Shown here: positions 16,289-42,577 of the stretch, in pieces
How the letters are laid out: each line of letters opens with the position of its first letter
How positions within the stretch are numbered: the first letter of the stretch is position 1
Assembly: GCA_964016885.1 (NCBI GenBank)
Contig: OZ024742.1
Coordinates: 276,582,001-276,646,000 of the forward strand
DNA: 64,000 nucleotides
Reading direction: 5' to 3'
From: Eledone cirrhosa
Lineage: Eukaryota
Translations under genes and position numbers: made by a program
The notes under the pieces: model-generated
What the model was told of the DNA's origin: nothing
Databases searched by the model: none
Seen by the model: only the letters and a program-made list of their open reading frames with translations

Positions 16289-16778
16289 ATATAATTGAAT
16301 ATAAAAGAGAGATAAACACATATATGTGTTCAAATCGTAAGGGACTAGATTCGCTAGGGTGAAAAAAAATACTAACTATGAACAATAGGGTTTGAAAGAC
16401 TCAATTTAAAAGAATAAATTAAGAAATGAAATACAAACCAAAATTGCGACAACTGTCAGACACCCAGACAGCTTTTGGTAATGCTGTTTCATAAATTTAG
16501 TGATAGAGAATTACCAATTCTTTTGCTCATCAGTGCGCGTGAAATTAGTAAACCCTTCACTTCTAAGTATCTCAGAAGACTGAATAGTGGGCATATATAA
16601 AATAACGCACATGGCATCAGAACCTAGCGAATCTAGTCCATTACGATTTGAACACATATATGTATATATCTGTGTTTATCTCTTTTATATTCAATTATAT
16701 TACACAGCCCGGAAAAATTTCTTTCCGTGAGCTATTTAATTGTAAGAGACTATTTTGAGTTTCTAACTCAATATATAC
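16289..16778. mobile_element. Penelope-like (pLTR/retrozyme-type) insertion with ~70-bp inverted repeat
   Basis: Arm 16289-16358 is the reverse complement of 16623-16700 apart from small indels. The spacer carries a hammerhead, an ~80-nt unpaired extension follows the right arm, and the left end abuts (TA)n. Confidence 0.7.
16461..16539 (-). ncRNA. Type I hammerhead ribozyme
   Basis: Minus: cgcgca-CTGATGA-gca...tat-GAAA-cagc-attaccaaaa-gctg-TC-tgggtg. Complete core, perfect 4-bp stem III, GUC cleavage triplet, stem I 5/6 pairs, weakened stem II base. Confidence 0.8.
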
Positions 16779-17047
16779 CTTTTCATCATCATTATCATTT
16801 TACGTCCGCTTTTCCCTGCTTTTCCCTGATTTCTTTTTTTTCCCCCTCGGTCTTCTCTCATAACTTCGTTTTGTTTAAAAGGCTCTCGCTAGTCCCTCTG
16901 TTAGTATTCATTCCCCTTTTTCCTTCCCACACACCACTATAGCCATTTGGACCAATCAAAACTCAGCAGCACAAATACATTTCACTCTAAACTCAATTTC
17001 TATGGCAAAAGCTGCTTCTTCTGCTACTATTACTACTAAACATTATT

Positions 17048-17250
17048 AAGGGCTGGTTGGTGGATTGGCAGTATTGGTAGAGGCGTCGGACGCCATGCTT
17101 TGACGCATAGAGTTACAGCCCTTGCCATTCTGAGTTCAAATCCCGCTGAGGTTAACTTTGCCTTTCATCCTTACGGGGTCGATAAAATAAAGTACCAGTA
17201 ATGTACTGGGTAATTACTGGCCTGTGCCAAAAGTAGAAACAATTATTAAG
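17048..17250 (+). mobile_element. tRNA-derived SINE with Deu/Nin-like domain and (TTA)n tail
   Basis: tggattggcagtattggtagag A-box, gagttcaaatcccgc B-box, gcctttcatccttacggggtcgataaaataaagtaccag central domain, ccaaaagtagaaacaattatta tail. Dozens of copies in the window. Confidence 0.85.
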
Positions 17251-17439
17251 GGCTGGTTGTTTTATATAATACATGGACTTCTGAACTGGAGAATTCCTAA
17301 AGATGAATTTAAATCCACCTCCTGTCTCTGGATGACCATAAAAATGGTCCTATTTATTTCAGGCATCAAAAACTCAAACATCTCTCACTCACCTCCCCAA
17401 GCTTTCATCTTCCTCTCACCCTTCCAATGAACTCCATAA

Positions 17440-18445
17440 CTTCAGAGCTGGTATCATCAATGTAGGCATGATGAAAGGATGATCACATGAGATTGTAGAG
17501 ATGCTTGAACGAAAGAAAGCTGCTAAGTCAAAACCATTCTATGTGGGTGTCCAACCTCACCAAGAGTGCATTCTGTCACCTATCCTGTTCATAATTTTCA
17601 TGAACAGGATTGATATGCATAGCTAGGTTGGAGGTGGTATCAAAACTGGCAGGTGTGGGATCAGTAGACTGGAATTTGCAGATGACCTGATTCTACTTAA
17701 CTTGTCAGAAGGTAATCTCCGACATGTACTGGATAGGTTTGCTGCCTAACGCTACAGAGTAAGTATGAAAATCAGTGCTGCAAAGATTGAGACACTCGTC
17801 TTCTTAAGAAAGCCTGAGTAGTGCACTCTTCATGTGAGTGGATTTACATTGAAGCAAATGGAGAAGTTCAAGTATCTTAGGGCCTGTTTTCATGTGTGAT
17901 GGAAGGCATGGAGCTAAATTAAGTGTAAGAATTTCAGGAGCTGGTGCAATAATACACCAGCTTCAGCATTCGGTCATTAGTAGAAGAAAGGTAGGTGTAA
18001 AAGCCAAACTTGCTATCTTTAATTTGGTATTCATGCCAACCCTTACCTATGGTCATAGTTCTTAGGTAATGACTAAAAGAATATGATCACAAATACAAAC
18101 AGCTGAAATGAGGGTCGTCCGAAGGGTCTTTGGAGTAACGTTATTTGGTAGAGTACATAGATTGGAGATCCGGAGAGTCACTCTTGGTAATGCCATTACT
18201 TCTCCAAATTGTGAGATCACTGCTCTGATATTACAGACATATTGGTCAGAATGTCTAAAGAAAGAATAGCTGGACAGATTTTACTGGCAAGAGACCCAAG
18301 GGTTGACTCTAAGCAAGATGGTTGGATAACATCTATCAGCTTGGCTGGTCTCACTTAGGGATCCAGTCAGATCATTGGAGAGAGTTGCTTCTGACAGAAC
18401 TCACTGGAAGGTATGTCTGAGGATTCTGCCTCCATCACCCTCTCT
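17440..18445 (+). mobile_element. RTE-clade (Expander/Rex3-like) LINE remnant
   Basis: EN N-terminal RAGIINVGMMKG..EIVEMLER joined to RT SKPFYVGV...CILSPILFIIFMNRID...LEFADDLILL...EKFKYL and the 3' end; contains stops and frameshifts. Confidence 0.85.
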
Positions 18446-21400
18446 GTGGGCAAAGAAGAAGAGTTTTCTGGAGTAATATGCATTATTAAGAGAATTGTAG
18501 GGAGGCAAGGGATAATAGGTGGTATTCATGCTTCTTTAAAATTTTACTACGAAATGCAGTCCAGAGCAATGGACTGGCAAAATTGTTAGTGTTGGATGAG
18601 ATATCTTCTTTGTTTTGGCTCTTTGTATTCTGAGTTCTTGTGTAGTAGCAAACTTAATCCATTGCCTAGTTTAATATCAGAACCCTTAAACGATTTTTCA
18701 AAAATCTTGGAACCCATATCTATATTTTACAGACAATCCCAACTGTTCTAATTTTAATAAGATATTAGTTAAATTAAAAATTGTTTTAGAAAGAGATTTT
18801 TTTCATATTTAAAAAATATATCCATAAGAAATTTTTATTAAGTTTTATTAAAAGGTACTATTATCTATTCAAACCAACTTTGGGAAAGACTTATATACCA
18901 ACGGTTTACTGTGCTGTTGGTAAACAATACGGGAATGAAATAGACTTCTATTAGTTTCAATGACGAGTTGTTTGATCAATGAAGAACAGCCTTCTTGCGA
19001 AATTAACATTCCACAGGCATGTGTACTCTTAACGTAATTCTCAGGGAGATTCATTTGAATTTCAATTACAGTTCATCTGATAGGTTTCCCAACAATTTCT
19101 ATTTCACTCACAAGGCTTGGGTCAACTTGAGGCTATGGTAAATGACACTTGCCATAGAGAATACTATAGTTTTAATGGTACACTATTAATAATGCAGCAT
19201 ACTATGTGACTGTCAGTTTTACTTGGAATTTGGATAAATAATTATTCTTTTATTTGGCATTTTCATTCACACTGCTTACCAAATTGTGGTTGTTGTTATT
19301 GTAGTAGCTGTTATCTGTATTTGTTTTGGATGGGCCTTGTTCTTTATTTTTGTCACTTATTTATAAGGTTGTTTTTATCATCACCATCATCCTCATCACC
19401 ACCACCACCACCACCACCATTAATGTCATTGCACATCTTTCCCCATATTTCTGGCCCTGTGCTTATGTTAGAAATATTTTATAATTATTATTATTACATT
19501 TGGCAGAAATGGTAGACTATTGAGCAACATGCTGTATTTTATCTTTCATGACTGTGTTCAAATTCCACTAGGATTTTATGGGCACTGGCATGGCTATGGT
19601 TAAGAAATTTGATTTGCAATCACAAAATTTCCAGTTTGTCATCTGCTTGCTACCAACCCATGGGAGGAAAATTTAGTTGATGGAAACTGTACAGAATCCC
19701 ATCAGATATGTTCTTGGTGGGTGGTAGACCTAACTTTTTTAGTGGACTTCATGTGGACCAAGTGTGGGTTTGGTTTGAGGAAAACTAAACATCTTGGTGT
19801 GCTGTGCCTTATTGCAACAATGTATGCATGGTGAATTGGTAGAGTTATTAAAGCATCCTTTCACCTTACAGGGTCGATAAAATAAAGTACCAGTAATACA
19901 CTGGGATAATTGCTGGCCTTGTGCCAAAAGTAGAAACAATTATGGTATTTGTGTTCAAAATTCATATCCCATTGTGGCCTACATGGGTGGTAGATGTAAT
20001 CCATAGCTCAGTTTAACACCACCAGCATCTAGCCCTGGGTGCCTTTATCTGAGTCCTCTCTGTTGCAATCCCCCATTAGTCTTGGAGGCCCTGAAAAAGG
20101 CTATTGACACTACCCTTCTCTCCATGACTAAACAGTAAATAAATAATTTATAGCCCAAATGTGTGATCAAGTGAAACAGACTAAAACTTTGATTGTTTTG
20201 TCTGCTTTTTAAGAACTGAATTCACTAATCTACTCTTGTGTTGTAAGATGTCACACTATGACCTTAGGTAATGTATAATGCCAACAACAGCAATCTCAAG
20301 GTTGTTAACTAAATGTCTGGATAGTAAACTGAATGTCTGGCAATTTTTTTTTCTTTCGTATTATGAAATGTGAGTGTGAGAAAGAATGTTTTAATCTTCT
20401 GACTCCAAGAGGAAAAGATAGTAGAATGTAATTTTCCACATATTGGATGATATTTATTTTATCTACTATAGCTCATTGAAAGATTCAAGCTTCTTCCTAA
20501 CAAAACAGAGTTGGACATGCAGACACCATTGTGAAGCAAAACTCAACATTATACATTATTTGTTTATGGTTTAGTCAAAGGAAGAAGGTGCAATGGACCA
20601 GTTGGGGGTGTTGAATTGTTAGACCATGCAGTGTATGACCCCCCCCCCCCACACACACAAAAAAACAACAACAAAAATCTCTTTTCCTCACGACTATGAG
20701 AGAAGATATCTTCCCAAGGTGTTGCACACTAAGATTGAACACACCGCACATACACACACACAAATTTTGTTACCACTTGAAAGATTGCATTAAGCAATAA
20801 TATCAGAGTAGCCTTTGAACAAATAAATATACTCCAAACTCTTAAAAACCTGTGTGTGTGCGTACACGCGCACACCATCATCAGCATTGTGTAATGTCTA
20901 TTTCTTATACTTGCATGTATTAGATGAAGCTGACCAATCAAGTGACCACGTCTAACTCATATGTTTCATTTTTGGCATGGTTTCTATGGCTGGATGCCCT
21001 TCCTAATGCCAACCACTTTACAGTGTATATTGGGAGCATTTCACCATAGCACCAGCACTACTATTTTACAGAGTGGCCTAGGTACATTTTATCATGGCAC
21101 CAGCACTACCCTATTATAACATTAGGGTGCTAGTTGTAATTGTGTTAAAATAGATAGATATAGGAGTGTCTCAACAAATTTCTGGATTCAGCTGATCAAG
21201 ATCTCATCAACTGAAGTGGAGCTATACTGCTAGCATTTTCCAACATATCAGTGGAGTATGGAACAACAAACGCAGAGCCACTTCCTCTCAAGGGAAGCTC
21301 AATAATTTGGCAATGTATGGGCAGGCTGCCAGAAGATGCATGGAAAGATGGTTGAAGTGCATGTAAACTGAAGGTGGTTATGTTTGTATGGAGATTATCC

Positions 21401-21982
21401 AAGCTAGCTTGTATAATATACACACACACTCACACACACACACATTCATTCACACACACAAGTTTTCAACTAAATATATGTCTTATAACTAAATGTCATA
21501 TGTTTAAAAGATAGTCAGCTATGTAAATAGTGCTGTAAATATGATGAAGGATTTTAAATTAGATGGTTAAATGGTTGCACTAGAATCATGTAGTAAAGCA
21601 GCATGCTCTACATAGGCTAGGTGCTCTTGTTGTTTAACTGTGGTAGAAGTTTTAGCTTCAAGTCACCACTTTTTCAGTATTCTTTCTAATTGTACTAAAC
21701 TTGGATTTTTTTCTTTAACAAATTAGTTAGGATATGAAGGACTGTGCTCATGACCTTTTGCAGGTCTTCAGGGAGTTATCTTCAAATCAGAGACTCAACC
21801 TGAGGTTTCAATAGAGTGGACACCAATAAAGTCATCCAAGGGCCAGAAATTGGTTGAGGGATTATATCTGCCATATGCTGTTTTGTAACCATTTCAGTTC
21901 CGTGGGAAATGCTATTGGCACTCCAAAGTTAACAGTGATAGCTAAATTTAACATTTTTAAGTTTGTGTGTAATTTATTTGAG

Positions 21983-22028
<46 letters not shown>

Positions 22029-22030
22029 AC
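21983..22030. repeat. Poly(C) run followed by (CA)n
   Basis: About 32 consecutive C; similar runs at 23637-23661 and 61853-61868. Confidence 0.9.
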
Positions 22031-22804
22031 CCGTACTATACTTGTTTCCAGTCATGGCTTATATGAAGGCGTACCTGGAATTGTATTCTGGAGTGCTTTT
22101 CTGTGCATGATGTCTAACATTTTATTTGGGAATAAATGGGATTTATGTTGTTCGTGTGTTCTTGTAAATGAAGTGAAACTGGATTTAACTAAGAATTGAA
22201 CATCAATCACAAACTTAGCTGAAAACACAGCTATATTAACTTACTTAAAAAAATAAATGTATCAATATTTCATGGGTAAACAACATGCATGAACTTGTGA
22301 ATGAGAACTTGTGTACCATTGGAAGCATTACTGTGTATATTCGGTTTAAGTTTTATAGAGTAACTAACTAAATTGCTTATCTAAATAGAATAAAAGCAAA
22401 TACACACACACTAGCATAGTATCCTTCAAAAGTGACGGGGTTTCTAGTAAAAAAAAATCTAATTTAATAATTCCTTGATCACAGCATTCTATGTAAAGAT
22501 GTTTGAAGCCTCAATTTTCCTTGACATTTCTTGACACACTGGTCATCACCATATTTCATTTTACATTCATTTAAATCAATTACAATAATTTTCTTCCATA
22601 TTTTCTTTAAACCTGTGCACTAATTTATTTATTCTATCTATCTACCTATCTATCTTCTGACTGCTATTAGAATTTGTTTTTATTGTTGTTCTTGTCCAAA
22701 AATAGATACATCTATCAGGCAGACAGACAGAGCAGTAGGTATGTAGGTAGATAGATTGAAAGAAAGAGTGATAGATAGACAGATTGCTAAACAGACAGAT
22801 AGAT

Positions 22805-22890
22805 AGATTTCTTTATTAGCCACAAGGGCGCAACAAGAAAGGGGACAATACAAAGACATGCCGGGGATTTTACATACAGTCGTGTAAAAC
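22805..22890 (-). mobile_element. 3' end of a Tx1/L1-like LINE inserted in a (GATA/GACA)n microsatellite
   Basis: Minus: ...tctttgtattgtcccctttcttgttgcgcccttgtggctAATAAAgaaatctatctat, a polyA signal directly before the microsatellite. Clade assignment is from memory. Confidence 0.45.
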
Positions 22891-24841
22891 AGACAGATAG
22901 ATAGACAGTTAAGTAGATAGATGTTTTTTTTTATTGTCCTAAGATAGATAAATAGTAAAGGATAGCAGTAGTTGACACTGACCTGCTTGTCAACGCAGAG
23001 AGTGAAAGTTAGGTAAGGAGGAAGACCCGAAATTAACATATTCCTGTCAAAGTTAGTGTTTTCTTTTAATGATATATATATATATATATCATCTTCATCA
23101 TCTAATGCCTGTTTTCCATGCTGGCAAGAGCTAGACAGATCATAGACCAAGCTAGTACTTAATCAGAGTTACTGACTCCTCAGGCAGGCTGGGGTGACAT
23201 CTTGCTAATATACTTTCTTGTATACTACAGGGTGCATCGGGTGCATTTTATCACCGCACCAGCACTAGGAAAGTTGTCATATCTTTAACAGAAACAAAAG
23301 TCCTCGCAACTCTTTGTTGTGTAGGTTATCTAAGGCTGAATGCCTATCCTATCACGAACAACTTTACAAATTGCATTTTATCATGTCAACAACACTAAAG
23401 AGCTTGTGCTTTTGACACAACTGAAGGGTCTTTTTGGCATGGTTTTTATGGTTTAATGCCCTTCCTATCATCAACCACCTTCCAAATTGTACTGGGTGCC
23501 TTTTTGGTAACATCAACACTAGAGAGGTTATCGTGTTGTGACTGAAGGGCTCTCTCAACACCAACCGCTTTACAGAGTGTATTGGTGCATTTTATTGATG
23601 CTCTAACACTAGGATGGTTTGTTTGTCTTTTGTTGCCCCCCCCCCCCCCCCCCCCCCCCCCGGAAGGTGATACGTATGATGTCATGGCTATATGGTAAGA
23701 AGTGGAGGAGTGAGAAAGTATGTCATAAGTGTGTGACAGGTGTGGTTGGATTTGACAGGGTGACAGGTACACACACGCTCATATTCAGAATGACTGCAAT
23801 ATCTTTATATTGATCTTTATAGTGTCTCTTAGTAAACAACACAACTGTATATATTTGTTTCCATCAGTTTGCAGGTGGTAAAATAACAGGTTATGGTTAT
23901 TGCAGTTAAAAACAATGTCTTTACTACTGTTGATTAGACATTTTGCCAATCAGCAGCAGTAACTTATGATAACAAAGTAGGCTATATTGAAGACCAGGTA
24001 GTTAACCCTGCAATCTATATTATCAACTGTTGCCATCGCCACAGCTGCTACTGCTCTTTAACTATAAGTAGTCAGAACCGGATTTTAAACAAAGAACAAA
24101 GCTAAGTGCTCTATTAACTCGAACCTCTATTAGTATAGTATATTGTTCATTATTATTATTATTATTAAAAAGCATTTCCTTTTGACATAAAGGAGGGCTT
24201 TGTTAGTTGGTGGGGTGGCTTGCTAATATATAGTAAACCTTAAAGACATTTGTTATCTTAATCAAGAATCTCCTCAGTAATACAGTTTTAACTACTTTGG
24301 TGGTGTCATATGATTTACTTAACCTCCTGTTTCAGAATGACACATGTTGCTTACATCCTTTTTAAGCAACCATTTTTATTTTATATTTTTCAATAGTTAT
24401 TCTACAGTAAATCCACATAGAATAAGTTAAAAGAATTAAGTGTTAAAATTTCAAAAGACAAAGGTGTCTACCAAATTCTTCAAAGAATAACCCAGCACAC
24501 ACTGTAAATGTGGTTGGCGTTAGGAAGGGCATCCAGCCGTAGAAAAACAACCAGAAACAGTCCTATATGAGCGAGACACGGCCATCCGACCCAACTTGTC
24601 TCAAATGAGACAAACCCGTCTAACCCATGCTAGCATGAAAGATAAACGTTAAATGATGATGATGATGATGATACTGAACTAACTGTCAGAAAAAAAAATA
24701 AGAAAGCTGTCTACAGAAAGAAGATACTCTCATGAGAGAGAAGGCTTTTTTGCTTTGGTCATGTGCATGCATGAGAGGATGAATGACTAAAGAAAATGCT
24801 GTTTTCAACTGTTCAGAAACTATGGGTAAATAACATCAATA

Positions 24842-25540
24842 GTGTTGTTGTTGTTTGTTGGTTGTCCATCGTAAACGATGATGACATCTTCTTTATTTTA
24901 GTTCCCGTCCGCCGTGGGCATGAAGGTGGATGTGGAGGCCGATCGGTGGAACGCCTGATCTTCTCTGTCATCCCAGGGTCAGGAGGAGAACGACTTGCGC
25001 ATCCAGGCTGCCCACGTGTGGGTTTGAGACTGGCAACTCCCAGAGGTTACCTCCACCTGTTACCCCGCCTCTTGCCTATCGCCGCAGGGCTTTGGGAGTG
25101 CACGCTAAAGAAGAAACCTGTGTGGGAAAGGTTTATAGTGGGAGGGCCAGTGCACAGTGACGGTTCCACTCACTCGGCCGCAGAAGCCAGAATCCGGTGG
25201 TACAGAGGACCGTCATGACTAGGGACTTCCTTGGCTGCAGTGGATGGCCACGATGTTTGTAGTGCTTTGTCGTGCCCTAGCACTCCACACCGCTTGCTGT
25301 CACCGCCTTCGTGACCATTGGGACGACCTTGTCCTCCTCCACTTACTCCAGTCTTCGCATGCAGGGGCAGGCATCTCCTATCTAACTCACCGGGGAGTTT
25401 CAGACTCATCCGGCTACCCTCAACCTGGTTCGGCCCGCCAGCCAAGGCGGTTTACCAGGGTGTGGCCGCTGTCGCATGCTACAGCTTCTTGGGGCCACAG
25501 GTGAGAGCTGAGTGTCAGGTGGGACCCAATGCAGGACGAG
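24842..25540 (-). mobile_element. Non-autonomous bipartite RTE-derived element (RTE 5'UTR fused to RTE 3' end)
   Basis: Minus strand ends with PIGLHIHLHAH (RTE C-terminal IGLHSHLRAH-like), a 3' hairpin catcgtttacgatg and a (CAA)n tail. The GC-rich body resembles BovB/AviRTE-type 5'UTRs; there is no RT. Confidence 0.7.
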
Positions 25541-25735
25541 CTGTGTCAGGTCACTCTTGCGTGCTACTGGTAACATGTAAACCAGTACAACCTGTCGCAT
25601 AGTCATCGTCGGCAACTAAACTGGCAACCCCACCAAGTTTACTTGGTGAGGAGGGTGATTTTGGACACCCTGCAGGACAAAAAACAAAACCTGACAAGAA
25701 GAAGAACTGATAAGAGTCAACGGCCATCCAAAAAT
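25540..25735 (+). mobile_element. RTE 5'UTR-like fragment, head-to-head with the previous element
   Basis: caactaaactggcaacccc...ggtgaggagggtgattttggacacc motif recalled from RTE 5'UTRs; ends before a (TA/TG)n tract. Confidence 0.5.
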
Positions 25736-27552
25736 GTGTAAATATGTATAAACACATGTACATATGTATGTGTATGTATATACGTGTGTGTGTATAATAG
25801 TGTTAGACTAGTACATTAAAAAGTTGATTGCAGTGGCATATAACTTTACTACACAAAAATGATAACTGGTCAGCCATTGTAGTACAAGAAAAATGTTTAG
25901 AAATGTCTTTATAATTAAGGTTTTTTGAAAGTAAATAATGAAGAATCATGTTTACTATTTAAAACTTGTGGAAGAGGAATGACACAGTAACATTCTCATC
26001 ATTGCTATTCAATATTGGTTGTATGTAGACTAATACCCTGGAAAAAGTGTTATAAAGTAAATTTTAGCTATACATTTACTGTCACCCTGTCAAATCCAAC
26101 CATACCTATCATACATTATTTACTATCAAAAAACCTTAATTATAAACACATTTCTAAACTTTTGGCTATAAATGAAATCTCCAACCTTAGATATGACTCA
26201 CATCATCCTTATCATCATTTTCCACTTGGTTTTCCATGTCAGCCTACTTGAAATCCCACAGTAACTTTTGACTACCCATAGTTTGCATTGAGTATCAATA
26301 TAGTATTCCAATCTATTTCTTTCCTGCATATTTGGCATGAACATTTCCTCAACAGTTTTGTTTTCTTTCCTGCTAGCTAGAACCTACAAATGCTTATTAA
26401 TACTACTAGCTTTTATGTTGAAAGTTCCTTCAAAGCTGTTGGCATTTCATGTACAAAACACTGAACATCTAAAACACTTAAACTACTCAGGTACTACTTT
26501 TGTGAAAATGTTCATTTAGGCTAACCATACCTTAATTTGGTGGTGGGAAATGCACCCCAAATCACACACTAAGTCATGCTTTTCTCTAATTTAATGATCA
26601 TTATATGTGATTAAATCACAATATCCAACACCACAAGTATTATGAGTGTTGAAGAGTTAATTCTTATTGCCTCTGTTTAAGTAGCATTAGAATAACTATC
26701 AGACTTGCAAATATATTTGTAATAACTTCCTATCCTGGTGAGTGTGGTGAAATGTTTGTTTCTTATCCACACAATACAACAGAAACCTATATTTATATAC
26801 TAGCTCTATGAACACCTGTTGTTTATGAAAGAAATCTTTATTTTTTATACTGCTCAGTCCAGTGTAACCTGGCTGTCAGTACTTAAAAAGCTTTTTGAAA
26901 CCTTCACCCAATTTGGTACCATTTAGGCTTGACACTTCAGTAGTTTTAATGATCTGATAGAAACTGGTTTTTTATGGCCTAAATTACCACAATGTGCGCA
27001 CGCACACACACACACACACAAACACACACATGTTCAATATTCACAAAGTTTTTGAAAGTCAGCTTTTTATTTGTTACCTCGCACTCAAGTGGAATAAACA
27101 ATCTAGCCAAATGAGTTGAGAAGTCATCAGAGATATTAACAGATATGTTCAGGAAAGGTGATTAAGCTGGTATGAAAATGTAAATTTGAATGAATAATAA
27201 ATGGTGGGTGAAAAAAGTCATAATTTGATAAAGAGTTCCCTATGTAAAGGAAAACCTAAGAAGTGGTAATATCAGACCCGAGAGCATTGTATCTCACAGA
27301 AAAGGTGATATGACTGTTGAACATACTCATCAACAACAACAACCAGTACTTTAAGACTATTTTCCTGGTTAAAGTAGGGGTTAGCTTCTTCATTTTGCTT
27401 TATCATCTAATCTTCCCTCAACAACTTCCATTCCTCCTCTACCATCTTTAGCCATACACTCCATGTCAATAAGGGTGGTGGTGGTTAGGCAATCATTGAA
27501 AAGGGTTGAAAACTACTAAGTTTGGCCTGTGCCCATTGTAGGAATAGATTAA

Positions 27553-27749
27553 CCCTTTAGCATTTACATTACTCTATATAAACTATTATATTTTCATGGT
27601 AAAGGCTTTACCTCACATAATATCGAATCTATGAGATTTTGAAATTATTTATTTTGAGAACAATACCTTAGCATCAGTATGAGCAGCCAGTTTGAACAGA
27701 AAGAAGTGAAAGAATTCTGGCTGGATATGGCTGGTTAAATGCTAAAGGG
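27553..27749. mobile_element. piggyBac-type MITE family B
   Basis: TTAA|ccctttagcattt ... aaatgctaaaggg|TTAA with 13-bp TIRs and a TTAA TSD. Confidence 0.9.
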
Positions 27750-30519: not shown

Positions 30520-30549
30520 AGCTATCCAATCAAAGCTAGCAGAGAAAAG
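30520..30549 (+). CDS. Candidate 30-nt internal exon (phase 2: AIQSKLAEK; phase 0: SYPIKASREK)
   Basis: ctaaattttcAG|...AAG|GTATGT: canonical acceptor and donor, length divisible by 3, lies in unique sequence. Confidence 0.55.
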
Positions 30550-31553: not shown

Positions 31554-31758
31554 CCCTTTAGCATTTAAACCGGCTGTATCCGGCCAGAATTCTCTGACCT
31601 CTTTCTGTTCAAACCAGCTGTAACCATCCACTCATACCAACGTTAAGGTATTGTTCTCAAAATAAATAATATCAAAATCTCATAGATTTGATATGTCAAG
31701 TAAAGCCTTTACCATAAAAATACAATAGTAAATATTCAGTAATGCAAATGCTAAAGGG
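31554..31758. mobile_element. piggyBac-type MITE family B (opposite orientation to the 27553 copy)
   Basis: TTAA|ccctttagcattt ... aaatgctaaaggg|TTAA; interior is the reverse complement of 27553-27749. Confidence 0.9.
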
Positions 31759-33603
31759 TTAAATGAATATTTTCTCTAATAAAGCTTCAAAATTATCCCA
31801 CTTTCTTACCACTAGTAGTATAATCATCAACAACAGTTAATTCTGCTTGTGAAATGAATTATTTTAGAGAGACTATACTACACCAGATGTTTGTTTGAAT
31901 GGTCAGGTATACAGTTTTACATTGGAAGGTTCTTGTTTAGAATTCCCGCCCACACATTATGTCTGTAGTATACAGTTACTACAGTAATTGAATGTTTCCT
32001 CTCTGAAACCTTCATTGATTCCATCTATTATGATGCTTAATACCAATATTAAGTTGCTAAAAATCACTATACTTAACTTTCCTCTCAGAGTTTTGCATTG
32101 AAGGTTAAACCTGAGAAAATGCCAGTTATAGCCTAGTAGATTAGACATTTAATTTAAAACGGAGACAGGGAATAGTTTAGGCTGAGGTTGGCAGCTGAAA
32201 TTTTATTCAGTTAGCCCATATGTGACCACATTTCTAATGAAATACACTAGATATCAATTATTTAATGAAGAATTTTGATGGATTTATTAAAATTATTTAT
32301 AATTTTGTTACTAAGATATCATCCTAACATATGGTTCTTATATAAAATTATGTTGGAAGACATTAATTTAAATTGGAAACTTTTTAAATGCTCTGTTTTG
32401 TTTCATAAAATCAGAGTCGGTTTTGGGCAGTTTGGTATTGAAAGGTTTAACCTATTTGGGGGATACAATACATAGCTGGTAACAGAATGAGAAAAGTTAA
32501 TTAACTAGAAGTTATCACTGTATAACTGCCATTTTAGTGTTGTCTCATTATTTGCATCAATCCCATACTCCCGCAGAACCTTCCACAAGTCCTGTGGAAT
32601 ACAGTCATAAGACATTTTTCATATTTTCCATAATTGGTATTTTGATTTTACAATCCTATGGCTCATTGTATACTCCAAATAGGATTTTTTAAACATTGAA
32701 TGGCTATGGGTGTCCTCCAGAGTGAAATAGGAAAAGTGATTCATAGGTAAAAAAAAGGTTGATAACTACTACTTTTTATGCTGAGTTTGAATCCCACTAG
32801 ACAACATCGCTTTTCATCTATCTAAAGTCAATAAAATGGAATACCAAGTATGTACTGGCACTTAATTCAAAACTACTTTGTCTCAATGTAAAAAATTATC
32901 ACCTTTACTGTTATTATTGCATCACCTGGTGACAGTGTTTTTGGATTTGCCTAAGCTGCATTTCTGGTTGTTATACCAATAGAATACTTCTAAGCCTTTT
33001 CTTTAACTATTTTTTCTGAGCTTCTCCTGATTTTTGTAAATTGATAAGATGAAGTCCTTTTGTATTAATTTGCCAGAATATAATGATAACATATGAGAGA
33101 TAGCAACTGTTATTTTGTTTGTCGAGAATTTAGCCCTCCACTTTAATAAAGGATTGCAATTGGAATAAGTTCACATCCTACCAATAATTATACATCTTTT
33201 TTTTTTTATTCACTCTAGAAGTGAAAATAAAGCCCAATACCACTGTCATTTTGCAATCGATCATTTAATGTCATAAAAGGTTTTCTACTATAAAATATGT
33301 TTTTAAAAGTCATATAAAGTGTCTTAATTTATTGAATTTCCTAATCAATATCATCCTACACACTGATGCGATTGTCAAATCATTGATCTTTTGTGGTCCA
33401 GCCTTATTGATTTTAGTAAGCAAGAAAAAGCATTTGCTCTACTCGTGCTTTTTCCAAGTATATTGGCAAAGTAAGTGAAATATCTATGATTATGAATCAC
33501 ATCTAGATTCAGTTTATTGAGTGTTAACAAGTAAATTATGCTTATATACTCACCCTTTTGAAAATAGTGGCACAAATTTATTCAGGATCACTTAAGCAGC
33601 TGA

Positions 33604-33839
33604 TTAGCCCTTTTGATACCAAACTGCTGTTGGTCCTACAATATTAAGCTGTTTATTTTTATCTAAAAACTTTCCATCATAATTTTTATGCAAGAACTTT
33701 AAGTTATGCTCCAAACACCAGCTTTATAATGAAAATGTATGTCATATTACTAATTCCTTCCAAATTCTTTACTATTTGAAAAATTATTTGTAAATCATAA
33801 GCAGTGTCTTCATTAGAAATACAGTAACAAACGGATTAA
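33604..33839. mobile_element. piggyBac-type MITE family A, degenerate
   Basis: ttagccccttttgatacc ... gtaacaaacggattaa; interior matches 12254-12512. Confidence 0.65.
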
Positions 33840-34569
33840 AGGATATAAAATCCAAATTAACATAGACAGAGCTTAAATTCAGAATCATATGATTTGGAAT
33901 CTGGCACTCTACATCTAAACCATTCATAAAATCAAAAAAGTATTTATATATTTTGTATTTGTCCTTTCAGAGGTAAATTAATTTCTATTATGATCTGACT
34001 TAATTATGGCTTTTATTTTGATTTTAAAATATAATTTATTTTACTATATAAATACAAGGAATGGGTTTACTTTAATAGTGAAGAGGCTAAGAATTAAGAA
34101 ATACTGTGTTTTGGGAGTTAGGTCTTTGTGTATGTGAAAGAGAGCAGTTTTGGAATGAGGAAGCTTGACAGTTTGTGGCTTTTTGGCACATGAACACAGT
34201 ATGGGTGGTGGTTAGTTGGCATGTATGTTAGATGTTAAAGCCAGCTGGTTAGTGCAACACACAAGGGAAATTCTTTCGTTTAGAATACTTGATAATGATG
34301 TTAGTATAAACATAGACCTGAAACACTGTGATGAACACTAAGTACACACTCTAAGAAATCTGACTTCAGATATATAAAAGGTGAAAATATACAGTGTTGA
34401 AATAGCATATGAGCCAAGAACCTAAGATATATGGTTTAGCCTTAATTGGATAGATATGTTCATTCTAAGTGTGATTTGTTATTATGCCAACAATTTAAGC
34501 TAAGAAAAGCTTGATTTGGTGTTCAACTGAATGAAAAGTAGCCTTTTTTTTTGTAGAATAAGCTTCACT

Positions 34570-36505
34570 TATTCCTGAGAGGGACGTGGGAGCAGAGTCC
34601 TCAAACACTCCTTCCAGTGGGTCATATCAGAAGCAACCATTTCCAATTGATCTGGCTGGATCCCCAAGCGAGACCAGCGAAGCTCATGGATATTATCCAG
34701 CCATCTTGGTTGGGGTCTACCCCTGGGTCTCCTGCCAGTTTATTTGCCTGTAAAATCTGTCAACTGAGACATTCTAGCCACATGCCCATAGTATCAGAGC
34801 TGTGATATCTCAATTTGGAGAAGTAGTGGCTCTACATGGAGCAACTCTCTGATCTCCAAGCTACGCACTCTAATGAGTAATGTTATTCCAACAACCCTTC
34901 GGAGGAACCCCATTTCGGCTGCTTGTATTTGTAATCATATTCTTTCGGTCATTACCAAAGATTTATGGTCATAAGTAAGAGTTGCATGAATACCGAATTG
35001 AAGATAGTGAGTTTGGCTTTTATGCCTACCTCCTTGTTCTGATTACTGAATGCTGGAGCTGGTACTGCTCCAGCTCCTGCAATTCTTGCACTTAATTCAG
35101 CCTCCTGCCTTCTATCACTCATGAACACGGCTCTGGGATACTCAAACTTCTTCACCTGCTTCCATTGAAATGTCGAGTGCACTGTGCAGACTTCCTTCAG
35201 AGGAAGTGTGTCTCAGTTTTAGCAGCACTGATTTTTATTCCAGCTATGCAGCACTTGGCATCAAACCTATCAAGTGCAAGTCGGAGATCACCTTCTGTCA
35301 AGTTCAGTAATACTATGTCATCTGCAAATTCCAGCAAACTGATTCTATACCTGCTAGAGTCGGCTGTGCTGCGTCTGGGGGGTGAAAACCACACTATTCA
35401 TCAGCTAGTGTAGACTTGACAATCTCCCTACATCTCTTTGCCAGCAGGGAGGCTTAACAAGGAGAGCCATCTATAATTGGAGCAATCTCTCTTGTCTCCT
35501 TTTTTGAAAATTGGGATTATCACACCTGATTGCCATTACTTTCCAGAGATCCAGGCCATGCAGCATGCATGAGTCAGCCAGAGAATACCTTCTCTATTTA
35601 AGGCTTTAAACATCTTGGACCAAATTTCAGCCTCCTTAGCAATCTTGCCACATTTGAGCTCTTTAATTGCTCCTGTGACTTCAGTCTCCCAGATGCACCT
35701 CGTGTACATCAGAAAATGCTGTTGTGATCAGGTTTAGGAGATCAGCAAAGTATTCTCTCCACCTCCTGAGGATGCACCTCTCTGAAGAGAGGAGAACCCC
35801 AGATGCATTCCTGATAGCAGGTGTGGAGGTGGACTTCTTTTTACGAAGTTGGCAGGTGGTTTTCCAAAACACTTTATTTGCTGATTTGAAGTCAGATTTC
35901 AGCTTAACCCCAAAGTGTTCTCATGTCTTAACTTTGGACGCATTTACTGTCTCTGCTGTGATTCTTCACGCTTGCTTGTATCACAAGTGCAAGATGGAGG
36001 ACATATTTCAAAGCCAAGCTTTGTAAGCCACCTTCTTTGCTTGGATGGCATTTTTGACCTCTTGATTGAACCAAGGGCTCCTCTTACCATCTAGCGTCAT
36101 GCCAAGCCTCTTTCCCCTGCAGCATTTAACAGCTGAAGCAGAAACTGCTAATTTGAATAATCTCCACTCCATTTCAACATCCTCAGTTTGCTCAGGGAAT
36201 TCTCTGAATTTGGATGCAATAGTATTTGCACACCTTGTCTTGACTTCCTTAACCACCAATGCTTCACACTTTATCCTGTAAGTCGTCCTGGACTTGCCAG
36301 TTTTGTGGGATCAGTGGTCAGCTTCTTGTTGACCTGTGTCACTATACAAATACCCGAGTATTTGTATTCAGATAAATGGTGCTAAATCTAAACCATTCAA
36401 TGTGGGAATCGGACTCCGCCAAGGATGCATACTGTCACCTCTCCTGCTCATTATTTTCATGAACATAATTGACATGCGCAGCCAGGTTGGAAGTGGTGTC
36501 ACATT
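34570..36505 (-). mobile_element. Rearranged RTE (Expander/Rex3-like) LINE
   Basis: Minus 34570-35356 is RT from ISLLEFADD to the 3' end; minus 35410-36330 is the EN-RT linker (PWFNQEVKNAIQAKK, RRWREYF, IPIFKKGD); plus 36335-36505 is RT SLYK...GLRQGCILSPLL. Confidence 0.88.
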
Positions 36506-36739
36506 TGATCTTGTTTTAGTTAAATGGAGTATGGTTAATACAATGTTATTTTTGAGTATTCAAAGGTCTGAATTCAAGAAGATGGCTGCACCATATTATT
36601 TTTGTTTTAGTTTTTGTTGTTCTTTTAGTTGTTACTGTTCTGTATTGTTTGAGTTGTTGGGTAGCATAAGAGAAGCTTAACTGAAAAATCATACGACACA
36701 TATGACACAGAAATACTTGATTTGTGAGTAAACAAGAGA

Positions 36740-36962
36740 AAGAGCCTCTCTCTATATGGTTATTTGACGTGCTAGAAAAAGCAGCCAAATCTCCTCCAAA
36801 TCACACCCTACCAACTAAAAAATGTAAAGACAGATATTAGAATTCATTAGTCAGAAATTCACTATAATTAATTGAAAAGTAGATAGGATGGTCACATCTG
36901 GAACACCTTTTGATCATAGGTCTGCTCAACCAAACTTCAGCTGGGGATAAACAACAGCAACA
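36740..36962 (-). mobile_element. Dispersed SINE-like repeat (gagcagacctatgatcaaaaggtgttccagatgtgaccatcc family)
   Basis: Related copies at ~2010-2185 +, 54010-54170 + and 60040-60290 -, sharing the motif atttggctgct..ttctagca.gtc. Confidence 0.6.
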
Positions 36963-36985
36963 TCTCTGTGTAAACCATAGATCCA

Positions 36986-37211
36986 ACAATCATCTCTGCC
37001 TATGCTCCCCAGGCAGGCCTAGGTAAAGAAGAGAAAGACTGCTTTTACAAGCAACTTTTACAGACAGCCTCAATGATAGAGGACAGAGACATTGTTCTGC
37101 TAGCAGGGGACTTCAATGGACGTGTTGGACAGCTCCAGGATAGATACACTGGGGTACATGGTGGGCATGGTTACGGCTCAAGAAATGAAGGAGTAAGGCT
37201 TCTTGAAATGT
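36986..37211 (+). mobile_element. RTE apurinic-like endonuclease fragment
   Basis: IISAYAPQAGLGKEEKDCFY...VLLAGDFNGRVG...VHGGHGYGSRNE. Confidence 0.9.
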
Positions 37212-37423
37212 AAAATTTATGTTTAGAATTAAAAGATATAATTTAAGATAAGATTAGAAAAGTAAGATTTAGGTTTAAAGTTGGGAGATTTAGTTAAAGA
37301 ATTTGCAGAAGGAAGCATTTATGAAAAGGTTAAATGTATTATTGTATTATTGATAGTCATAATAAAGTTTCAGGGTAGAATATAAAGTTAAGATTAAGAT
37401 TAAAAAGTAAGATTAAGCCCAAG

Positions 37424-37974
37424 TTTAAGAGTACTGTTTGGCGGTCAATAACCAGTGACGTGATGGACTCCCAGCCCACCCAGGGCCCAATGGCGTGTCA
37501 ACTGTTCCGAGTATTTTGGTCTACCGAAAGAAAGGGAAATTTATTTTTCCAAGCACTCCAGGAAAGTTAATTGTCTCAAGCGCGGGGGATGCTAGCGAGA
37601 AGCCCGCCACTGCCAGCTGATCATCGCGTATACCAAACGATTATTAGTTATTCACACTAGTGGGGGATTTAGTTAAAGAACTAGTAGAAGGAGGCATACA
37701 TTTTTAGAATAGGATTTAAAGTTAGGATTTAAGCTTAGAATTTAAGAGTACTGTTTGGCGGTCAATAACCTGTGGCGCGGCGGATTCCAAGCCCGCCCAG
37801 AGCCCAAGGGTGAAACAGCCATTCTGAGTATTTTCGTTTACCAAAAGAAGGAGAAATTTATTTTTCCAAGCACTCTAGGAAGGCTGATCGACTCGAGCAC
37901 TGGCCGTGCAAGCAGGAAGGCCGCCACATCCCTCGGATCATCGCGTGTACCAAACAATTATTAGTTATTCACAC
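37424..37974. repeat. Direct tandem duplicate, 2 x 234 bp (period 317), GC-rich core, unknown family
   Basis: 37424-37657 vs 37741-37974 align without gaps (about 46 substitutions by hand count). Both are preceded by a related ggg.gatttagttaaagaa...(TTAAGA/TTAGGA)n linker at 37282 and 37662. Confidence 0.9.
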
Positions 37975-38437
37975 CCATGGTGTGAAGTTTAAAAGTAGCA
38001 AAATCTGATGAAATGGGTAAGGAGACTATATTCAATCCCAAGTTAGCCAGGGTTATTTGAATTTATATGCAGTATGATTCCTGAGTGGTAGGAGGAGTAA
38101 TTAAAGATAAACAGATATAAAGGGTACAGAAAGTAATATTCTAGTGTTGTGCGCTTATTTTAGGTAACATTACCTATATATATATCTAGAGTGCTTAAAA
38201 TTATTTGTGACTAATCCCGGTCTTTTTTTTTTTAAAAACCGCGATAATATTGCTATTTTGCTGAACTCCTTACATTTTGTAGAGTTTTTTCGGAATGTTT
38301 TTTGACTGCTGTTTCTTGTAAATAGACATTCGTCCATGTGTGTTTATTTTCATAATTACGCACGAGGTGAGCTAAGCCTGCTTTTAAATTCCCTTTTTGG
38401 CATATTCTAACAGTGAGACTAGGGTTATCGTGTTTGA

Positions 38438-38516
38438 GCTCTACTGATGAACGACTCCAACCGTGACCATCCCCACTGAAAAGTTACGTGAAATAGTCTT
38501 TAAGACTATATAGAGC
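38438..38516 (+). ncRNA. Type I hammerhead ribozyme, intact
   Basis: gctcta-CTGATGA-acg...cgt-GAAA-tagtctt-t-aagacta-TA-tagagc: 6/6 Watson-Crick stem I, 3-bp stem II base, near-palindromic stem III, AUA triplet, predicted cut after 38510. Confidence 0.88.
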
Positions 38517-38781
38517 ATTTGTAGTTTTTCCAAATTGAAGGATGAGTATTTAAACTTTATTTTATTCAGAGTTAAGACTCTATTGGTTTTTCCCTGATTT
38601 CACAAAATCTTTGGATAAATCTATGTCTTGATTTTTTTTTAATTGAGTTTGAATTATTTTCCCACATCTTACGTTAATTATTTTTCCATTTTGACGTTAT
38701 AGTCACTTATATATTATGAAATACTGTTGGATTCATGCTCACATTAATTTCTATACTTTCATTTATATGTATATATATATA

Positions 38782-39150
38782 TATAGTTAAATAAGATAAC
38801 AAGGATGATTGGTTACTCCTTCATTACGTTTATTGGTTGGTGATGTGCGTTTCGCCACTGACCAGCTCCAGGTTTGATCTGTATCAATCTGATCTGACTC
38901 TGTAATCCACGGCTCATCAGACAATTACAGAGTCAGGTCAGATCCATTCAGATCGAACCTTGAGCTGGTCAGTGGCGAAACGCGCATTACCAACCAATAA
39001 ACGTAATGAAGGAGTAACCAATCATCCTTGTTATCTTATTTAACTATAATACACTCTGTGTAGCTCTACACCTTCACACTGAAGTGAACCTAAACATCGA
39101 GTGCTCACCCGGGTGAACCTACAGTAACTCCAAGTTACACTCCCTGGATA
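38782..39150. mobile_element. Penelope-like pLTR insertion: 125-bp inverted repeat plus ~100-nt extension, flanked by (TA)n
   Basis: 38782-38906 vs 38924-39048 are reverse complementary (8 mismatches, 17-nt loop), each arm carries AATAAA, and (TA)n lies at 38765-38785 and 39148-39170. Confidence 0.8.
38837..38924 (-). ncRNA. Type I hammerhead ribozyme, minimal stem III, partly decayed
   Basis: Minus: ttgt-CTGATGA-gcc...ggc-GAAA-cgcaca-TC-accaa, then AATAAA. The other arm reads ggcGAAAcgcgcatta, implying an ancestral palindromic stem III acgcgcgt. Confidence 0.72.
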
Positions 39151-39849
39151 TATATATATACATATATATAGGTAATACAGGCAGGTTAACCGAGAATATA
39201 AACTAAGAATGTAGTCTATTGCTCCTTATTAGCTATTCACACCATGACTGTGCACCCCACCCCTACTCTATTCAAGATCTAAATCCTTACATCGCCCCAC
39301 TCTATCCAGGATGACCCTTACCCTTGCCCTTCTTACACCCTCACAAACCAGTCAACTCTTTAGTAGCTGTTCTCATCATTACAGTACTCCTATGCTATCA
39401 GCGGTCACTTTTTCTCTTCCACTTGACATACTTTCTCACCTCTCCTACATATCATACACATACCAATGGCGCTATACTGATCGTCCTTCCTATCTTCCAC
39501 CTGTCCTATCAACCTCTCATAGTGTAGAGAGGGCTTTCAGTTGAATAAATGTTTAATACCCTCCCTGGTACTGGTAACACAAAAAAAATTCACCCAGTAC
39601 AGCTTGTAAGATGGTTGGTGATAGCAAGGGCATCCGGCTGTAAAAACCAAGCAAAAAGGCTTGAAAGGTCTTTTCAGTTGTGTCAGGATGAGGAGGTCAC
39701 TGTCATCTGTTTTTGAGGTTGCCTATGATTATTCTAAGCTTGACATCAAATATTGTAAGTACCTTAATTACATCTATCTACTAGGAAAATGTCTATTCCA
39801 CCTATTGCTTCATTGTTTCCTATCCAGAAGAGCTTATATCTGCAAGGAA

Positions 39850-41150
39850 TCTAACTGAGATTCCTCTCCACCTCACTTCCTGTACACAGCACACAAATAT
39901 ATGCCTCCATTCAAGCATCTCCACAATTTTCCCTGATCTCCCTTTCATTGTATCAACATTAAGGGTGGCAACCTAGTGCTTGGCACATTGTTATACAGCT
40001 GTCATTTTACTTACTCCTCATATGTCCATACCAGTGCAATCATCTTTTTTTGTACACTATTATCTGATTCCTCTTGTATTCAGATTTCCATTCAGCAGAG
40101 TATGCTTGCTTCAGTTCTTTCTAACCCATGTAAATCTTCTTCATTTTGGGCTCACATCTTGCTACCTTGCAGCATAGCAGTTCAAACATAGGCATCATAC
40201 AACCTGCCTTTCATTCTGAAAGTGGAGCTAGCAGAAGTAACAATTACACTTTTGGTACATCCATCTTCACTGCAAATGAGGTCACCAAGATAGCAGAAAC
40301 TGTCTACTTCTTCTAGTGAACCTTTTGAGCACATGTCACATGTGAAATCTACCTTTTCTGTCAGCATACTTGTCATTCCACTACATCTCTTGTGTGCCCA
40401 CTGTCCACACTGAGAACACTGTATAGAGTTTTCTACCTACTCTTTTTCTGCAATTTCAGCATGTTCGTTTCCTTAATAGTAGCAGAGTCCTATCCTTTTC
40501 CTACTTACAAAGATTTTAGACTTAGCTAAGTTTATATTGAGGTCCTTGCATTCCAGAATCTGCTTCTATGTGTAGAAATTCTTCACTAATTCATCTACGC
40601 TCGGGTCTTGAATAATTGTCTCCTACTCCCTTTTAATTTTTCAGATTTTTTTTATTCCAATATCGCTCATTAAATTTAGCTAATCTAGCTCCTCCAGCAA
40701 AATTTTATTTTAAGTGGTAGCATTAATCAATTTTCTTTAGACATTAAAAAACATTATACATGACAAAAAAAGAGACATTACAAGAAATCTCATACATTAT
40801 AAAATACATAGGATGGGTTGGGGTCTCTATATGTAAACTAAACAACTAATTCTGGTTTTTTTATTTTTTTATTGAGACAACCTAGAAAAATTATAAATTT
40901 TCTAACCCCACTGCTTATTCCTCCCCGTCTATTATTTGGGACCCGAGTTCTTTCTGCAATGAAGACCAGGCCATAAGCATACAAGAGTTCCTACAAGCAA
41001 CCAGTCTTGAATTCCTCTGCTTTGGCCTGGAGGGCTATAAAAATAAACATGAGGGAGCTAGGAAGTGAGCCCTGATGGACTTCGACCTGCATACTAAATT
41101 TGTTGCCAACTATCACCTTCCTGGCTCCTCTTCTGCATATAAGAATAAGG
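39850..41150 (-). mobile_element. RTE-clade LINE remnant with Cys-rich insert in the RT region
   Basis: FSMQVEVHQGS...EEFKTGC (41000-41110); SIQCSQCGQWAHKRC; FTCDMC..SLEEVDSFCYLGD..; MKGRLYDAYV. Interrupted by a MITE. Confidence 0.8.
40598..40948. mobile_element. TIR MITE (pogo/Tigger-like) nested in RTE
   Basis: ctcgggtcttgaataat vs the reverse complement of attatttgggacccgag; AT-rich interior. Confidence 0.6.
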
Positions 41151-41777
41151 CACAAGCTGGTTATCAAACACAAAGATATGTAGAAAAGTTAATGAATAAG
41201 GGTAGCAATTCACAAGTGAAACAATTCATAATTGGAAAAAATCAATCATTTTCCTTTTAATTAGAAACAATTCTACTTAATAGAGTAATTCACATTTTGG
41301 GCCAAGTTTTAGGTACAAAATTTAGACTTCAATTATTAGTATGGAATTCATCAATGCTTCAAGTTTCAATTGTAGATCTGACCAGTCTGTAATTCACCAT
41401 AGGCACTTGTATATTTTTACATGAAGTCAAGAAGAGGTTTCTTCTCTTATATTAAAGATTTTGCTGAGCAGGGTCAGGATAATGAGCTTCATGTCTGTGC
41501 ATAAACGACAGAAGCTACTGTAGCATTTGCATTCTTTTACTTCTACTACAATATATTTTTTATTGTAAGATTGCTTTCTCCCTTTCATTTAAAATCCAAA
41601 TGTTTTAAAGGTGATGCAGCATTGTTTTTACTCATGAGTCTAAATAAATGAGTGTGCTGTATGTATCTAATTATAAAAGTGTTTTTAGTTAACCCAATAA
41701 CTAACTCACTCGATATGCAAATTAGGCATAAGGAAAGTATATACTTTCAAACGTTCAATCGATTGACAGGAAGGTAT

Positions 41778-41820
41778 ACGGTGCTGATGACAGCTAAGAA
41801 GCTAGAAACTAGTTCATCGT
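41778..41820 (+). ncRNA. Minimal type I hammerhead ribozyme
   Basis: acggtg-CTGATGA-cagc-taagaa-gcta-GAAA-ctag-TT-catcgt: 6-bp stem I, palindromic aactagtt stem III, GUU triplet, C-A mismatch at the stem II base. Followed by hairpins, AATAAA (~41914) and (TA)n at 41943. Confidence 0.82.
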
Positions 41821-42577
41821 TCCTTTGTCAGTGTTGAACAAAAGGGCAACGATGGTTGCCGAACACTGTATGGCTTAATTTGGGCTGTTTGTTTACAAAC
41901 AAACCGAGCATTATAATAAATGTTCGGTAAACCCATACGAACATATATATATGTGTGCATGTATGTATGTATATACATACTACTGTACGTCTGTATACAT
42001 ATATGTATGTACGTATACATACTTATATTTCAATATCTTTTCTTTGCCATCAACTAATTCTACATCTGCTCTGTATATTATTTCTTTCAACAGGCATTTT
42101 CTATCCAATATAAAGAAAACAATTCTTGTTAGGATTCTATCATAGTATGAGGCAGCTTTATTAATAGGTGTACATGCACACACACATGGGAAGAAAAAGC
42201 GAAGGATTCTTGGATGGCTAGAATCAATAGTTTGATCATTTGCAATACCAAAAAGACTAGGAATAATGAACAACTAGTGTTCAAAATTGTTATTTGTTTT
42301 GTATTATATCAGCTATGGTTTTTGATGTGATAACGTGATTGTGATGATCTTCAGCATGTACATACAGCTGTGCTATCTGTATTGTGTACTAGTGTAACCT
42401 CATATTTTTCTATGAAGCTCTTTTTGTCATTGTTTAGCCACTGGTTGAGCAAACCTATTTTCAAATGCATTCTAGCAGTGGCCAATTCATCTTTACTGGC
42501 ATTGTTATCTAATATGTCCTTTTTTTTGTTTAACCTTTTCATTACCATATTTCTAATAAAAGACACTTCTTTGACTA

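Follow-up and report, generated by a model that had tools for sequence, protein, structure and literature searches.

Four decayed hammerhead-bearing insertions at (TA)n tracts of Eledone cirrhosa, probably of Penelope-like origin, and a candidate helix shared by three of their tails

A stretch of 64,000 nucleotides (nt) from Eledone cirrhosa (NCBI GenBank assembly GCA_964016885.1, contig OZ024742.1, positions 276,582,001 to 276,646,000 of the forward strand), hereafter the window and numbered from its first letter, holds four non-coding segments, termed A to D, each with a type I hammerhead ribozyme core and each adjoining a (TA)n microsatellite in otherwise AT-rich, repeat-dense DNA (Table 1). 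We consider it highly probable that the four segments are decayed multi-copy insertions representing the 5′-truncated 3′ ends of four families copied by the machinery of Penelope-like elements (PLEs), likely of the (TA)n-targeting Hydra type. The origin of the segments from TA-targeting hammerhead retroelements of Penelope type had been proposed in a sequence-only reading of the window, and it is supported by copy number, by an arm-and-tail layout that recurs in other copies and by the (TA)n that follows the tail end of A in other copies.

Table 1. Insertions, hammerhead motifs and tail helices, with coordinates and strands in the window
Feature	Position	Strand	Remarks
Element A, short arm	16289..16622	-	5′-truncated copy; ends at (TA)n; contains the hammerhead
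Hammerhead A, type I	16461..16539	-	predicted cut after C16467
Element A, inverted long arm and tail	16623..16782	+	arm 16623-16700; tail of ~82 nt, 16701-16782
Tail helix of A	16706..16733	+	outer 5 bp, 2-nt bulge, inner 5 bp
(TA)n, left-hand remainder of the microsatellite into which B and C inserted	38175..38184		
Element B, inferred inverted tail-only arm	38185..38295	-	inner boundary approximate; depth peak, tail helix strand
Tail helix of B	38264..38286	-	outer 5 bp, 2-nt bulge, inner 4 bp; all Watson-Crick
Element B, direct arm	38296..38763	+	ends at (TA)n; depth climbs towards 38750
Hammerhead B, type I	38438..38516	+	predicted cut after A38510
(TA)n between B and C	38764..38785		
Element C, short arm	38786..38923	-	truncated 3 nt upstream of the hammerhead core
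Hammerhead C, type I	38837..38924	-	long stem II, near-palindromic stem III
Element C, inverted long arm and tail	38924..39147	+	arm 38924-39048; tail of ~99 nt, then (TA)n
Tail helix of C	39052..39103	+	outer 5 bp, 2-nt bulge, inner 3 bp around a further hairpin
Element D, single 5′-truncated arm with tail	41680..41942	+	left end approximate; then (TA)n
Hammerhead D, type I	41778..41820	+	predicted cut after U41814
Imperfect tail helix of D	41883..41910	+	3 of 5 outer pairs, 6-bp inner hairpin

The sequence-only reading had reported complete hammerhead cores with correctly placed stems at all four places. The cores were recovered in each case, with CUGAUGA, GAAA and UH present at 16533 (-) in A, 38444 (+) in B, 38920 (-) in C and 41784 (+) in D, and the CUGAnGA, GAAA and NUH elements stand in type I order in all four. 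The stems are complete in B; those of A are complete only with the letters carried by the majority of reads, those of D are complete except for a C.A at 10.1/11.1, and C lacks most of stem I. Hammerhead B is the best preserved of the four, with a stem I of 6 bp, a stem II of 3 bp (4 bp in the read majority) and a stem III of 7 bp, and its minimum-energy fold recovers stems I and III (z -2.4). In A, stem III has 5 bp and a 10-nt loop; stem I of the genomic copy is disturbed by a G.G mismatch and stem II by a C.A, and in the read-majority form these two stems have 6 and 4 bp. Stem I of C retains 2 bp, its 5′ strand being interrupted at the arm junction, and a C.A pair adjoins the core in stem III. 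Hammerhead D pairs over 6 bp in stem I; its stem II has 4 bp after the C.A and is closed by a tetraloop, and its stem III is palindromic. Of the four window copies, three are damaged or truncated; the window copies are likely inert relics, B being the one that would most likely still be able to cut.

Other copies were examined in Logan contigs from one sample and in restriction site-associated DNA sequencing (RAD-seq) reads from three others of the same organism. All four segments are multi-copy, with a depth far above that of the single-copy flanks. Summed contig depth, which does not equal copy number, was 13 (X1) and 8 (X2) in single-copy bins, 8,800-118,000 in bins of B, 35,000-104,000 in C and 222,000-935,000 in D, and in A it reached 15,000-240,000 over the arms and tail and 700-1,600 over the core. 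RAD-seq depth, read roughly and with an assumed genome of 2-5 Gb, puts the ends of A, B and C at ~10^3 copies and D at ~10^4, and on the same assumption the core of A at only 7-16 copies at 80% likeness. Both measures describe dispersed multi-copy families, and the motifs are not the single-copy sequences that had been named as evidence against a mobile origin. Furthermore, the majority letters of the families tend to mend the stems. Four of the five majority differences listed for stems I and II of A form Watson-Crick pairs, including G10.1-C11.1, and one breaks the fifth pair of stem II; the single difference listed in stem II of B restores a pair (the fourth), and so does the single one in the tabulated stem II of C. 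Judged from these letters, the ribozyme fold appears to be under selection in the families and the window copies appear to have decayed, with the comparison contrasting family conservation with the decay of window copies rather than serving as a formal covariation test.

A and C had been described as an inverted arm plus an extension, and this layout was confirmed in both (arms 16289-16358/16623-16700 in A and 38782-38906/38924-39048 in C). The arms of A meet head to head at 16622/16623. Opposite-strand joints at 16363/16623, present in 39 reads with 8 starts in X4, show that the arms are truncated copies of one sequence, and one 293-nt contig runs from the core of A through the arm and on into the tail. 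Among the joints listed, at least nine different ones connect the short arm to the long arm in other copies, and at least five lie inside the tail. The tail end at 16782 is followed by (TA)n in other copies, with loose ends in 50-64 contigs and 558-843 reads. The long arm of C contains the 3′ half of the hammerhead. B and C inserted into one microsatellite, and the left 110 nt of B form a separate depth peak and are joined through (TA)n at 38185 in another locus. In D, 872 of 1464 reads in one direction stop at 41880, indicating a second end that precedes (TA)n by 62 nt, and opposite-strand joints occur in other copies at 41702/41799, 41702/41818 and 41728/41886. Other copies of A, C and D repeat the arm-and-tail layout with different junctions. 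An inverted 5′-truncated copy with a one-sided tail, the hallmark of endonuclease-bearing (EN+) PLEs, is seen directly in A and C and is deduced for B.

Several further observations concern these elements. At 16783-16825 a very abundant repeat (contig depth ~10^6) starts exactly at the tail end of A, in place of (TA)n. The nine differences between the arms of C (38782-39048) are all confined to the 66 innermost of 125 nt (p ~0.002-0.01), the outer 59 nt being identical, a pattern that could be explained by two different RNA templates or by gene conversion. The two arms of C also agree in a minority allele within stem II, a G in place of A on the sense strand at 38862 and 38968, so that they would derive from one subfamily or from one edited RNA; being confined to this single site, and a minority variant on either side, the shared G is not claimed as an editing signal. 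A-to-G editing as the source of differences between the two arms was likewise set aside: the three A/G differences are more readily explained by G>A changes in the left arm, where two lie at CpG and the read majority at 38893 is G. Upstream of hammerhead D, at 41714-41745, stand what we take to be an octamer-like ATGCAAAT and a TATA-like stretch, a possible internal promoter; other copies hold extra letters at 41726 that are missing here.

A (TA)5 or longer run lies 135-326 nt downstream of each hammerhead core, a position near the 3′ end that is the placement expected of EN+ PLEs. A run within 330 nt downstream is found at 8.7% of the strand positions of the window and at 3 of 25 other CTGANGA sites; the 330-nt cut-off was chosen post hoc, and B and C share one run, leaving three independent sites. 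On these terms each segment does adjoin (TA)n, as had been claimed. The segments had also been described as carrying no open reading frame (ORF), and none of the stop-free frames of at least 50 aa that overlap them matched Pfam at E<=0.01. A Pfam search of all 367 stop-free frames of at least 50 aa in the window revealed no remnant of a reverse transcriptase or GIY-YIG endonuclease of PLE type. Weak RVT_1 matches at 35200-35397, 36333-36677 and 48474-48650, together with a PHD match at 40185-40436, were read as relics of long interspersed nuclear elements (LINEs); a RICTOR_M match was followed into PDB sequences, where nothing was found, and the remaining matches lie below their cut-offs at about the chance rate.

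The tails of B, C and, in its read-majority form, A appear to share a covarying helix with a CTC/GAG motif and a 2-nt bulge. The bulge lies on the 3′ side and the outer 5-bp helix ends in CUC/GAG, and the sequence of the outer pairs and inner helices varies between families with the pairing kept. One mismatch in the window copy of A is repaired by the majority letter (96%) at 16709, and the helix of B stands on the strand predicted for its inverted tail. A descriptor of the helix gave four matches in the window versus 1.5 in 200 shuffles; two of the four are the helices of B and C, which precede (TA)n by 100 and 94 nt respectively, and the shuffle rate is 0.0012 per 100 nt. The families had been called unrelated, and in sequence this stands: BLASTN found no similarity between the segments (word 7, E<0.01), and a plain alignment of the four tails gave no sequence family. 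It does not extend to structure, which the tails share. Statements on published work here and below refer to the available parts of each source. By eye, the bulged helix is present in the 3′ ends of Hydra-2_Amil, Hydra-2_Ajap and, here with one mismatch, Hydra-1_Crog, and at the 5′ end of Hydra-1_Ajap (PMC8557442), so that four of the six novel Hydra consensus sequences of that source carry it; the helix is not described in the accompanying text. No paper on a conserved PLE tail helix was found in the literature searched, which included few subscription papers. The helix is a candidate signal for the start of reverse transcription.

Insertions of PLEs are 5′-truncated, and many include an inverted copy together with a tail on one side; PLEs of the Hydra clade carry canonical hammerheads and insert into (TA)n (PMC8557442). 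Elements of this clade resemble A to D in the (TA)n target and in the type I hammerhead near the 3′ end, Penelope-13_HM resembles A and C in its inverted 5′-truncated copies, and other Hydra rows share with D a mismatch at the base of stem II (10.1/11.1) and an ACU/AGU stem III. Targeting of (TA)n is not by itself diagnostic of Hydra, since Naiads and others also target (TA)n; Naiads, however, are defined by the lack of a canonical hammerhead (PMC8557442), whereas cores in canonical order are present here. At the protein level the Hydra clade is characterised by RWK, DKT and CxCX5C motifs and by the absence of CCHH. The hammerheads of PLE pseudo-long terminal repeats (pseudo-LTRs) likewise include dispersed single motifs of truncated PLEs and opposite-strand pairs 100-700 bp apart, and they resemble C and D in their long stem II, palindromic stem III and predicted need for a dimer, in contrast to A and B, which have a stable hairpin stem III and a long loop 2 (PMC4209133; Cervera and de la Pena 2014). 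The Poseidon protein of Anolis carolinensis cuts and extends both strands at AT-rich DNA in vitro, starting at two internal RNA sites whose spacing equals the tail, and hammerhead cleavage is dispensable for insertion in that system (PMC11167929; Frangieh et al. 2024). Poseidon resembles the mechanism set out below in its cutting of both strands, in the two internal starts that define the tail and in a start within a stem-loop; it differs in belonging to another clade, in start sites that lie within the ORF and in that no helix shared across families is reported in that source.

In the mechanism that we propose, a PLE protein (reverse transcriptase and GIY-YIG endonuclease) would cut both strands within a (TA)n tract, and each DNA end would prime cDNA synthesis at one or the other of two fixed positions within the RNA, which lie 62-105 nt apart depending on the family. 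Both cDNAs would stop early and be joined head to head, giving two inverted arms with a tail on one, and a hammerhead 55-250 nt upstream of the first start site would be carried along in short copies. The recognition signal read by the protein may be the bulged helix, which follows the first start site at a distance of a few nt, and in intact copies the hammerhead probably serves to process precursor or tandem transcripts. A broader proposal, which we put forward tentatively and hold to be nearly as probable as its opposite, is that unrelated PLE families and their non-coding parasites share one RNA signal just downstream of the first start, a 5-bp helix with an invariant CUC/GAG, a 2-nt bulge on the 3′ side and an inner hairpin. 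It would be conserved by covariation from the Hydra elements of coral, sea cucumber and copepod to these cephalopod-type repeats; a Hydra-clade protein would bind the helix to set internal priming, which would explain the one-sided tail, and any RNA with the helix, circular RNAs of retrozymes included, would be mobilisable into (TA)n.

Several points weigh against the PLE reading. No remnant of a PLE protein was found in the window, and the tails of 62-105 nt exceed the published 30-40 bp (PMC8557442). Most copies of A match the window copy on both sides and diverge from it at ~16406-16543, the part with the hammerhead, so that the hammerhead statistics for A come from ~30 contigs and few reads; this divergence suggests subfamilies with different ribozymes. 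For C and D, majority letters of the core are not among the rows listed, and the left segment of B is assigned as an inverted tail from its depth peak and helix strand rather than from a joint. Regarding the helix, the descriptor was built from these very sequences, only B being semi-independent; the tail of D fits just three of five outer pairs, and a 4-nt deletion lies in the inner hairpin of B in 232 of 520 X4 reads. Furthermore, no clear copy of the helix was seen in Hydra-1_Obim, and none in the 3′ end of Hydra-1_Amil as displayed in the source.

The strongest alternative refines the PLE reading rather than replacing it. Some of the four, A and B first, may be ORF-less non-LTR retrozymes, short units whose tandem transcripts would undergo hammerhead cleavage and circularisation before a PLE protein copied them in trans; we regard this as a serious possibility and lean somewhat against it. 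Metazoan retrozymes of this kind resemble the window segments in being non-coding, in carrying canonical type I hammerheads, in numbering thousands of copies and in their proposed mobilisation by PLEs (PMC7229834; bioRxiv 10.64898/2026.07.22.740005). The helices of A and B have canonical sizes (a 6-bp stem I, a 4-bp stem II in the read majority and a stable stem III), which is the retrozyme type as given in PMC7229834; read depth in A is about the same upstream of the hammerhead as over the short arm, and monomeric dispersed retrozyme copies have been described (bioRxiv 10.64898/2026.07.22.740005). Retrozymes are, however, defined by tandem units of 150-450 bp and by circular RNA, and no tandem array of a hammerhead unit is present at any of the four loci. 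Among the joints listed, moreover, none leads from the tail end back to the upstream part. Every copy breaks off within ~150 nt of the hammerhead on its upstream side, so an ORF could lie further up, and the segments would suit either the end of an autonomous element or a retrozyme.

The inverted arms adjoining TA, and relics in the window that we take to be mariner-like, would also suit a reading of A and C as miniature inverted-repeat transposable elements (MITEs) with terminal inverted repeats and a TA target duplication, in which the hammerheads are passengers or chance matches. This is very unlikely: the high-copy sequence extends 82-99 nt beyond one arm, the inner ends of the arms vary between copies, and reads carry one arm into sequence that lies inside the other. 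The read joints, the one-sided tail and the variable inner ends largely rule out a MITE identity for A.

Equally improbable is that the hammerheads are chance matches in AT-rich DNA, although several of the counts show why the question arises. The loosest relaxed descriptor gave four matches in the window versus a shuffle mean of 2.41, and 30 of 150 shuffles reached four. With stem I required to pair at >=4/5, the window again gave four matches, versus a mean of 0.83, and one of 150 shuffles reached that number; the strictest descriptor in the comparison gave two, versus a mean of 0.11 (1/150 shuffles). The relaxed descriptors were tuned with the four motifs in view. A strict descriptor found two matches in the window, B and C (the latter in another register), and missed A and D. 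An Rfam search returned no hammerhead match at E<=1 over the whole window nor at E<=10 over 37200-42100, its matches in the window being microRNA-model noise on (TA)n alone, with no ribozyme among them, and minimum-energy folding of A, C and D did not give the hammerhead shape. A degenerate-core scan of the window added six rows at five places, none convincing; the best, at 8972 (+), belongs to a hammerhead-like layout at 8966-9032 whose core has one mismatch and whose stems I and III are weak, and which is probably due to chance. Motif counts by themselves are modest evidence, and the case is carried by copy number and by stem repair in other copies: each of the four motifs belongs to a high-copy repeat and stands at a comparable position relative to the (TA)n that follows, and majority letters mend the stems. 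That the host retains the hammerheads as intronic regulators of a gene is the least probable reading. In its favour, the + strand is rich in T across most of the window, which could be a trace of transcription; against it, the window copies differ from their families by stem-breaking changes and no exon was recognised. The claim that the elements lie inside an intron-rich gene was not borne out, no host exon being found among the 367 stop-free frames or by a crude splice scan; a very long intron could nevertheless surround them.

The suggestion that such elements might be undescribed in this lineage does not hold at the level of the class. Hydra-1_Obim from Octopus bimaculoides, an element of 2507 bp with a (TA)n preference and a hammerhead at 2403, has been published (PMC8557442 files S1, S2; Craig et al. 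2021), and A to D add four families to a class that was thus on record for Octopus. Its hammerhead differs from those of A, B, C and D, and the window segments, unlike Hydra-1_Obim, hold no ORF. Six motifs of 11-15 nt from A to D had no match in the supplement text of PMC8557442, where line breaks may hide matches. Penelope-like families have been counted in Octopus vulgaris (PMC13282606, PMC8967140), the words 'hammerhead' and 'ribozyme' do not occur in the available text of PMC13282606, and no paper on octopus hammerheads beyond PMC8557442 was found in the literature searched (few subscription papers; Repbase not covered). The four families may already stand catalogued as Penelope or unknown repeats.

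Other features of the window were also recorded. At 37282-37986 lie two GC-rich, multi-copy tandem units of ~317 nt that are 79% alike (contig depth up to 10,600 versus 13); this dimer adjoins an APE-endonuclease-like LINE fragment at 36950-37210 and has no Rfam match and no hammerhead core. A hammerhead of scrambled order in the dimer was considered and rejected, as by eye the core is not conserved between the two units. A high-copy segment at 40700-40880 (contig depth ~55,000) shows sharp read ends at 40725 and 40851. At 15593-16010 a 23-nt tandem array of 5.3 copies is followed by a 300-nt segment, whose end resembles what we take to be elements of Helentron/HINE type. A 50-nt inverted repeat at 25891-26163, 94% complementary with its arms 170 nt apart, lies near a TA/CA-rich run and is possibly a MITE. 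Finally, a frame-shifted transposase relic on the - strand at 60850-61300 has no Pfam match and is, we assume from its translation, mariner-like.

Hammerheads are ordinary for a PLE-rich genome, and it is the shared tail helix that gives this locus its value. The reverse transcriptases of PLEs are the nearest retroelement relatives of telomerase. A helix that appears to covary across unrelated families is directly testable, because an in vitro PLE system exists (PMC11167929). If the helix is the signal, it would serve as a sequence-independent marker for finding the non-coding parasites of PLEs, and it would put to the test the mobilisation of retrozymes that has been proposed for these elements.

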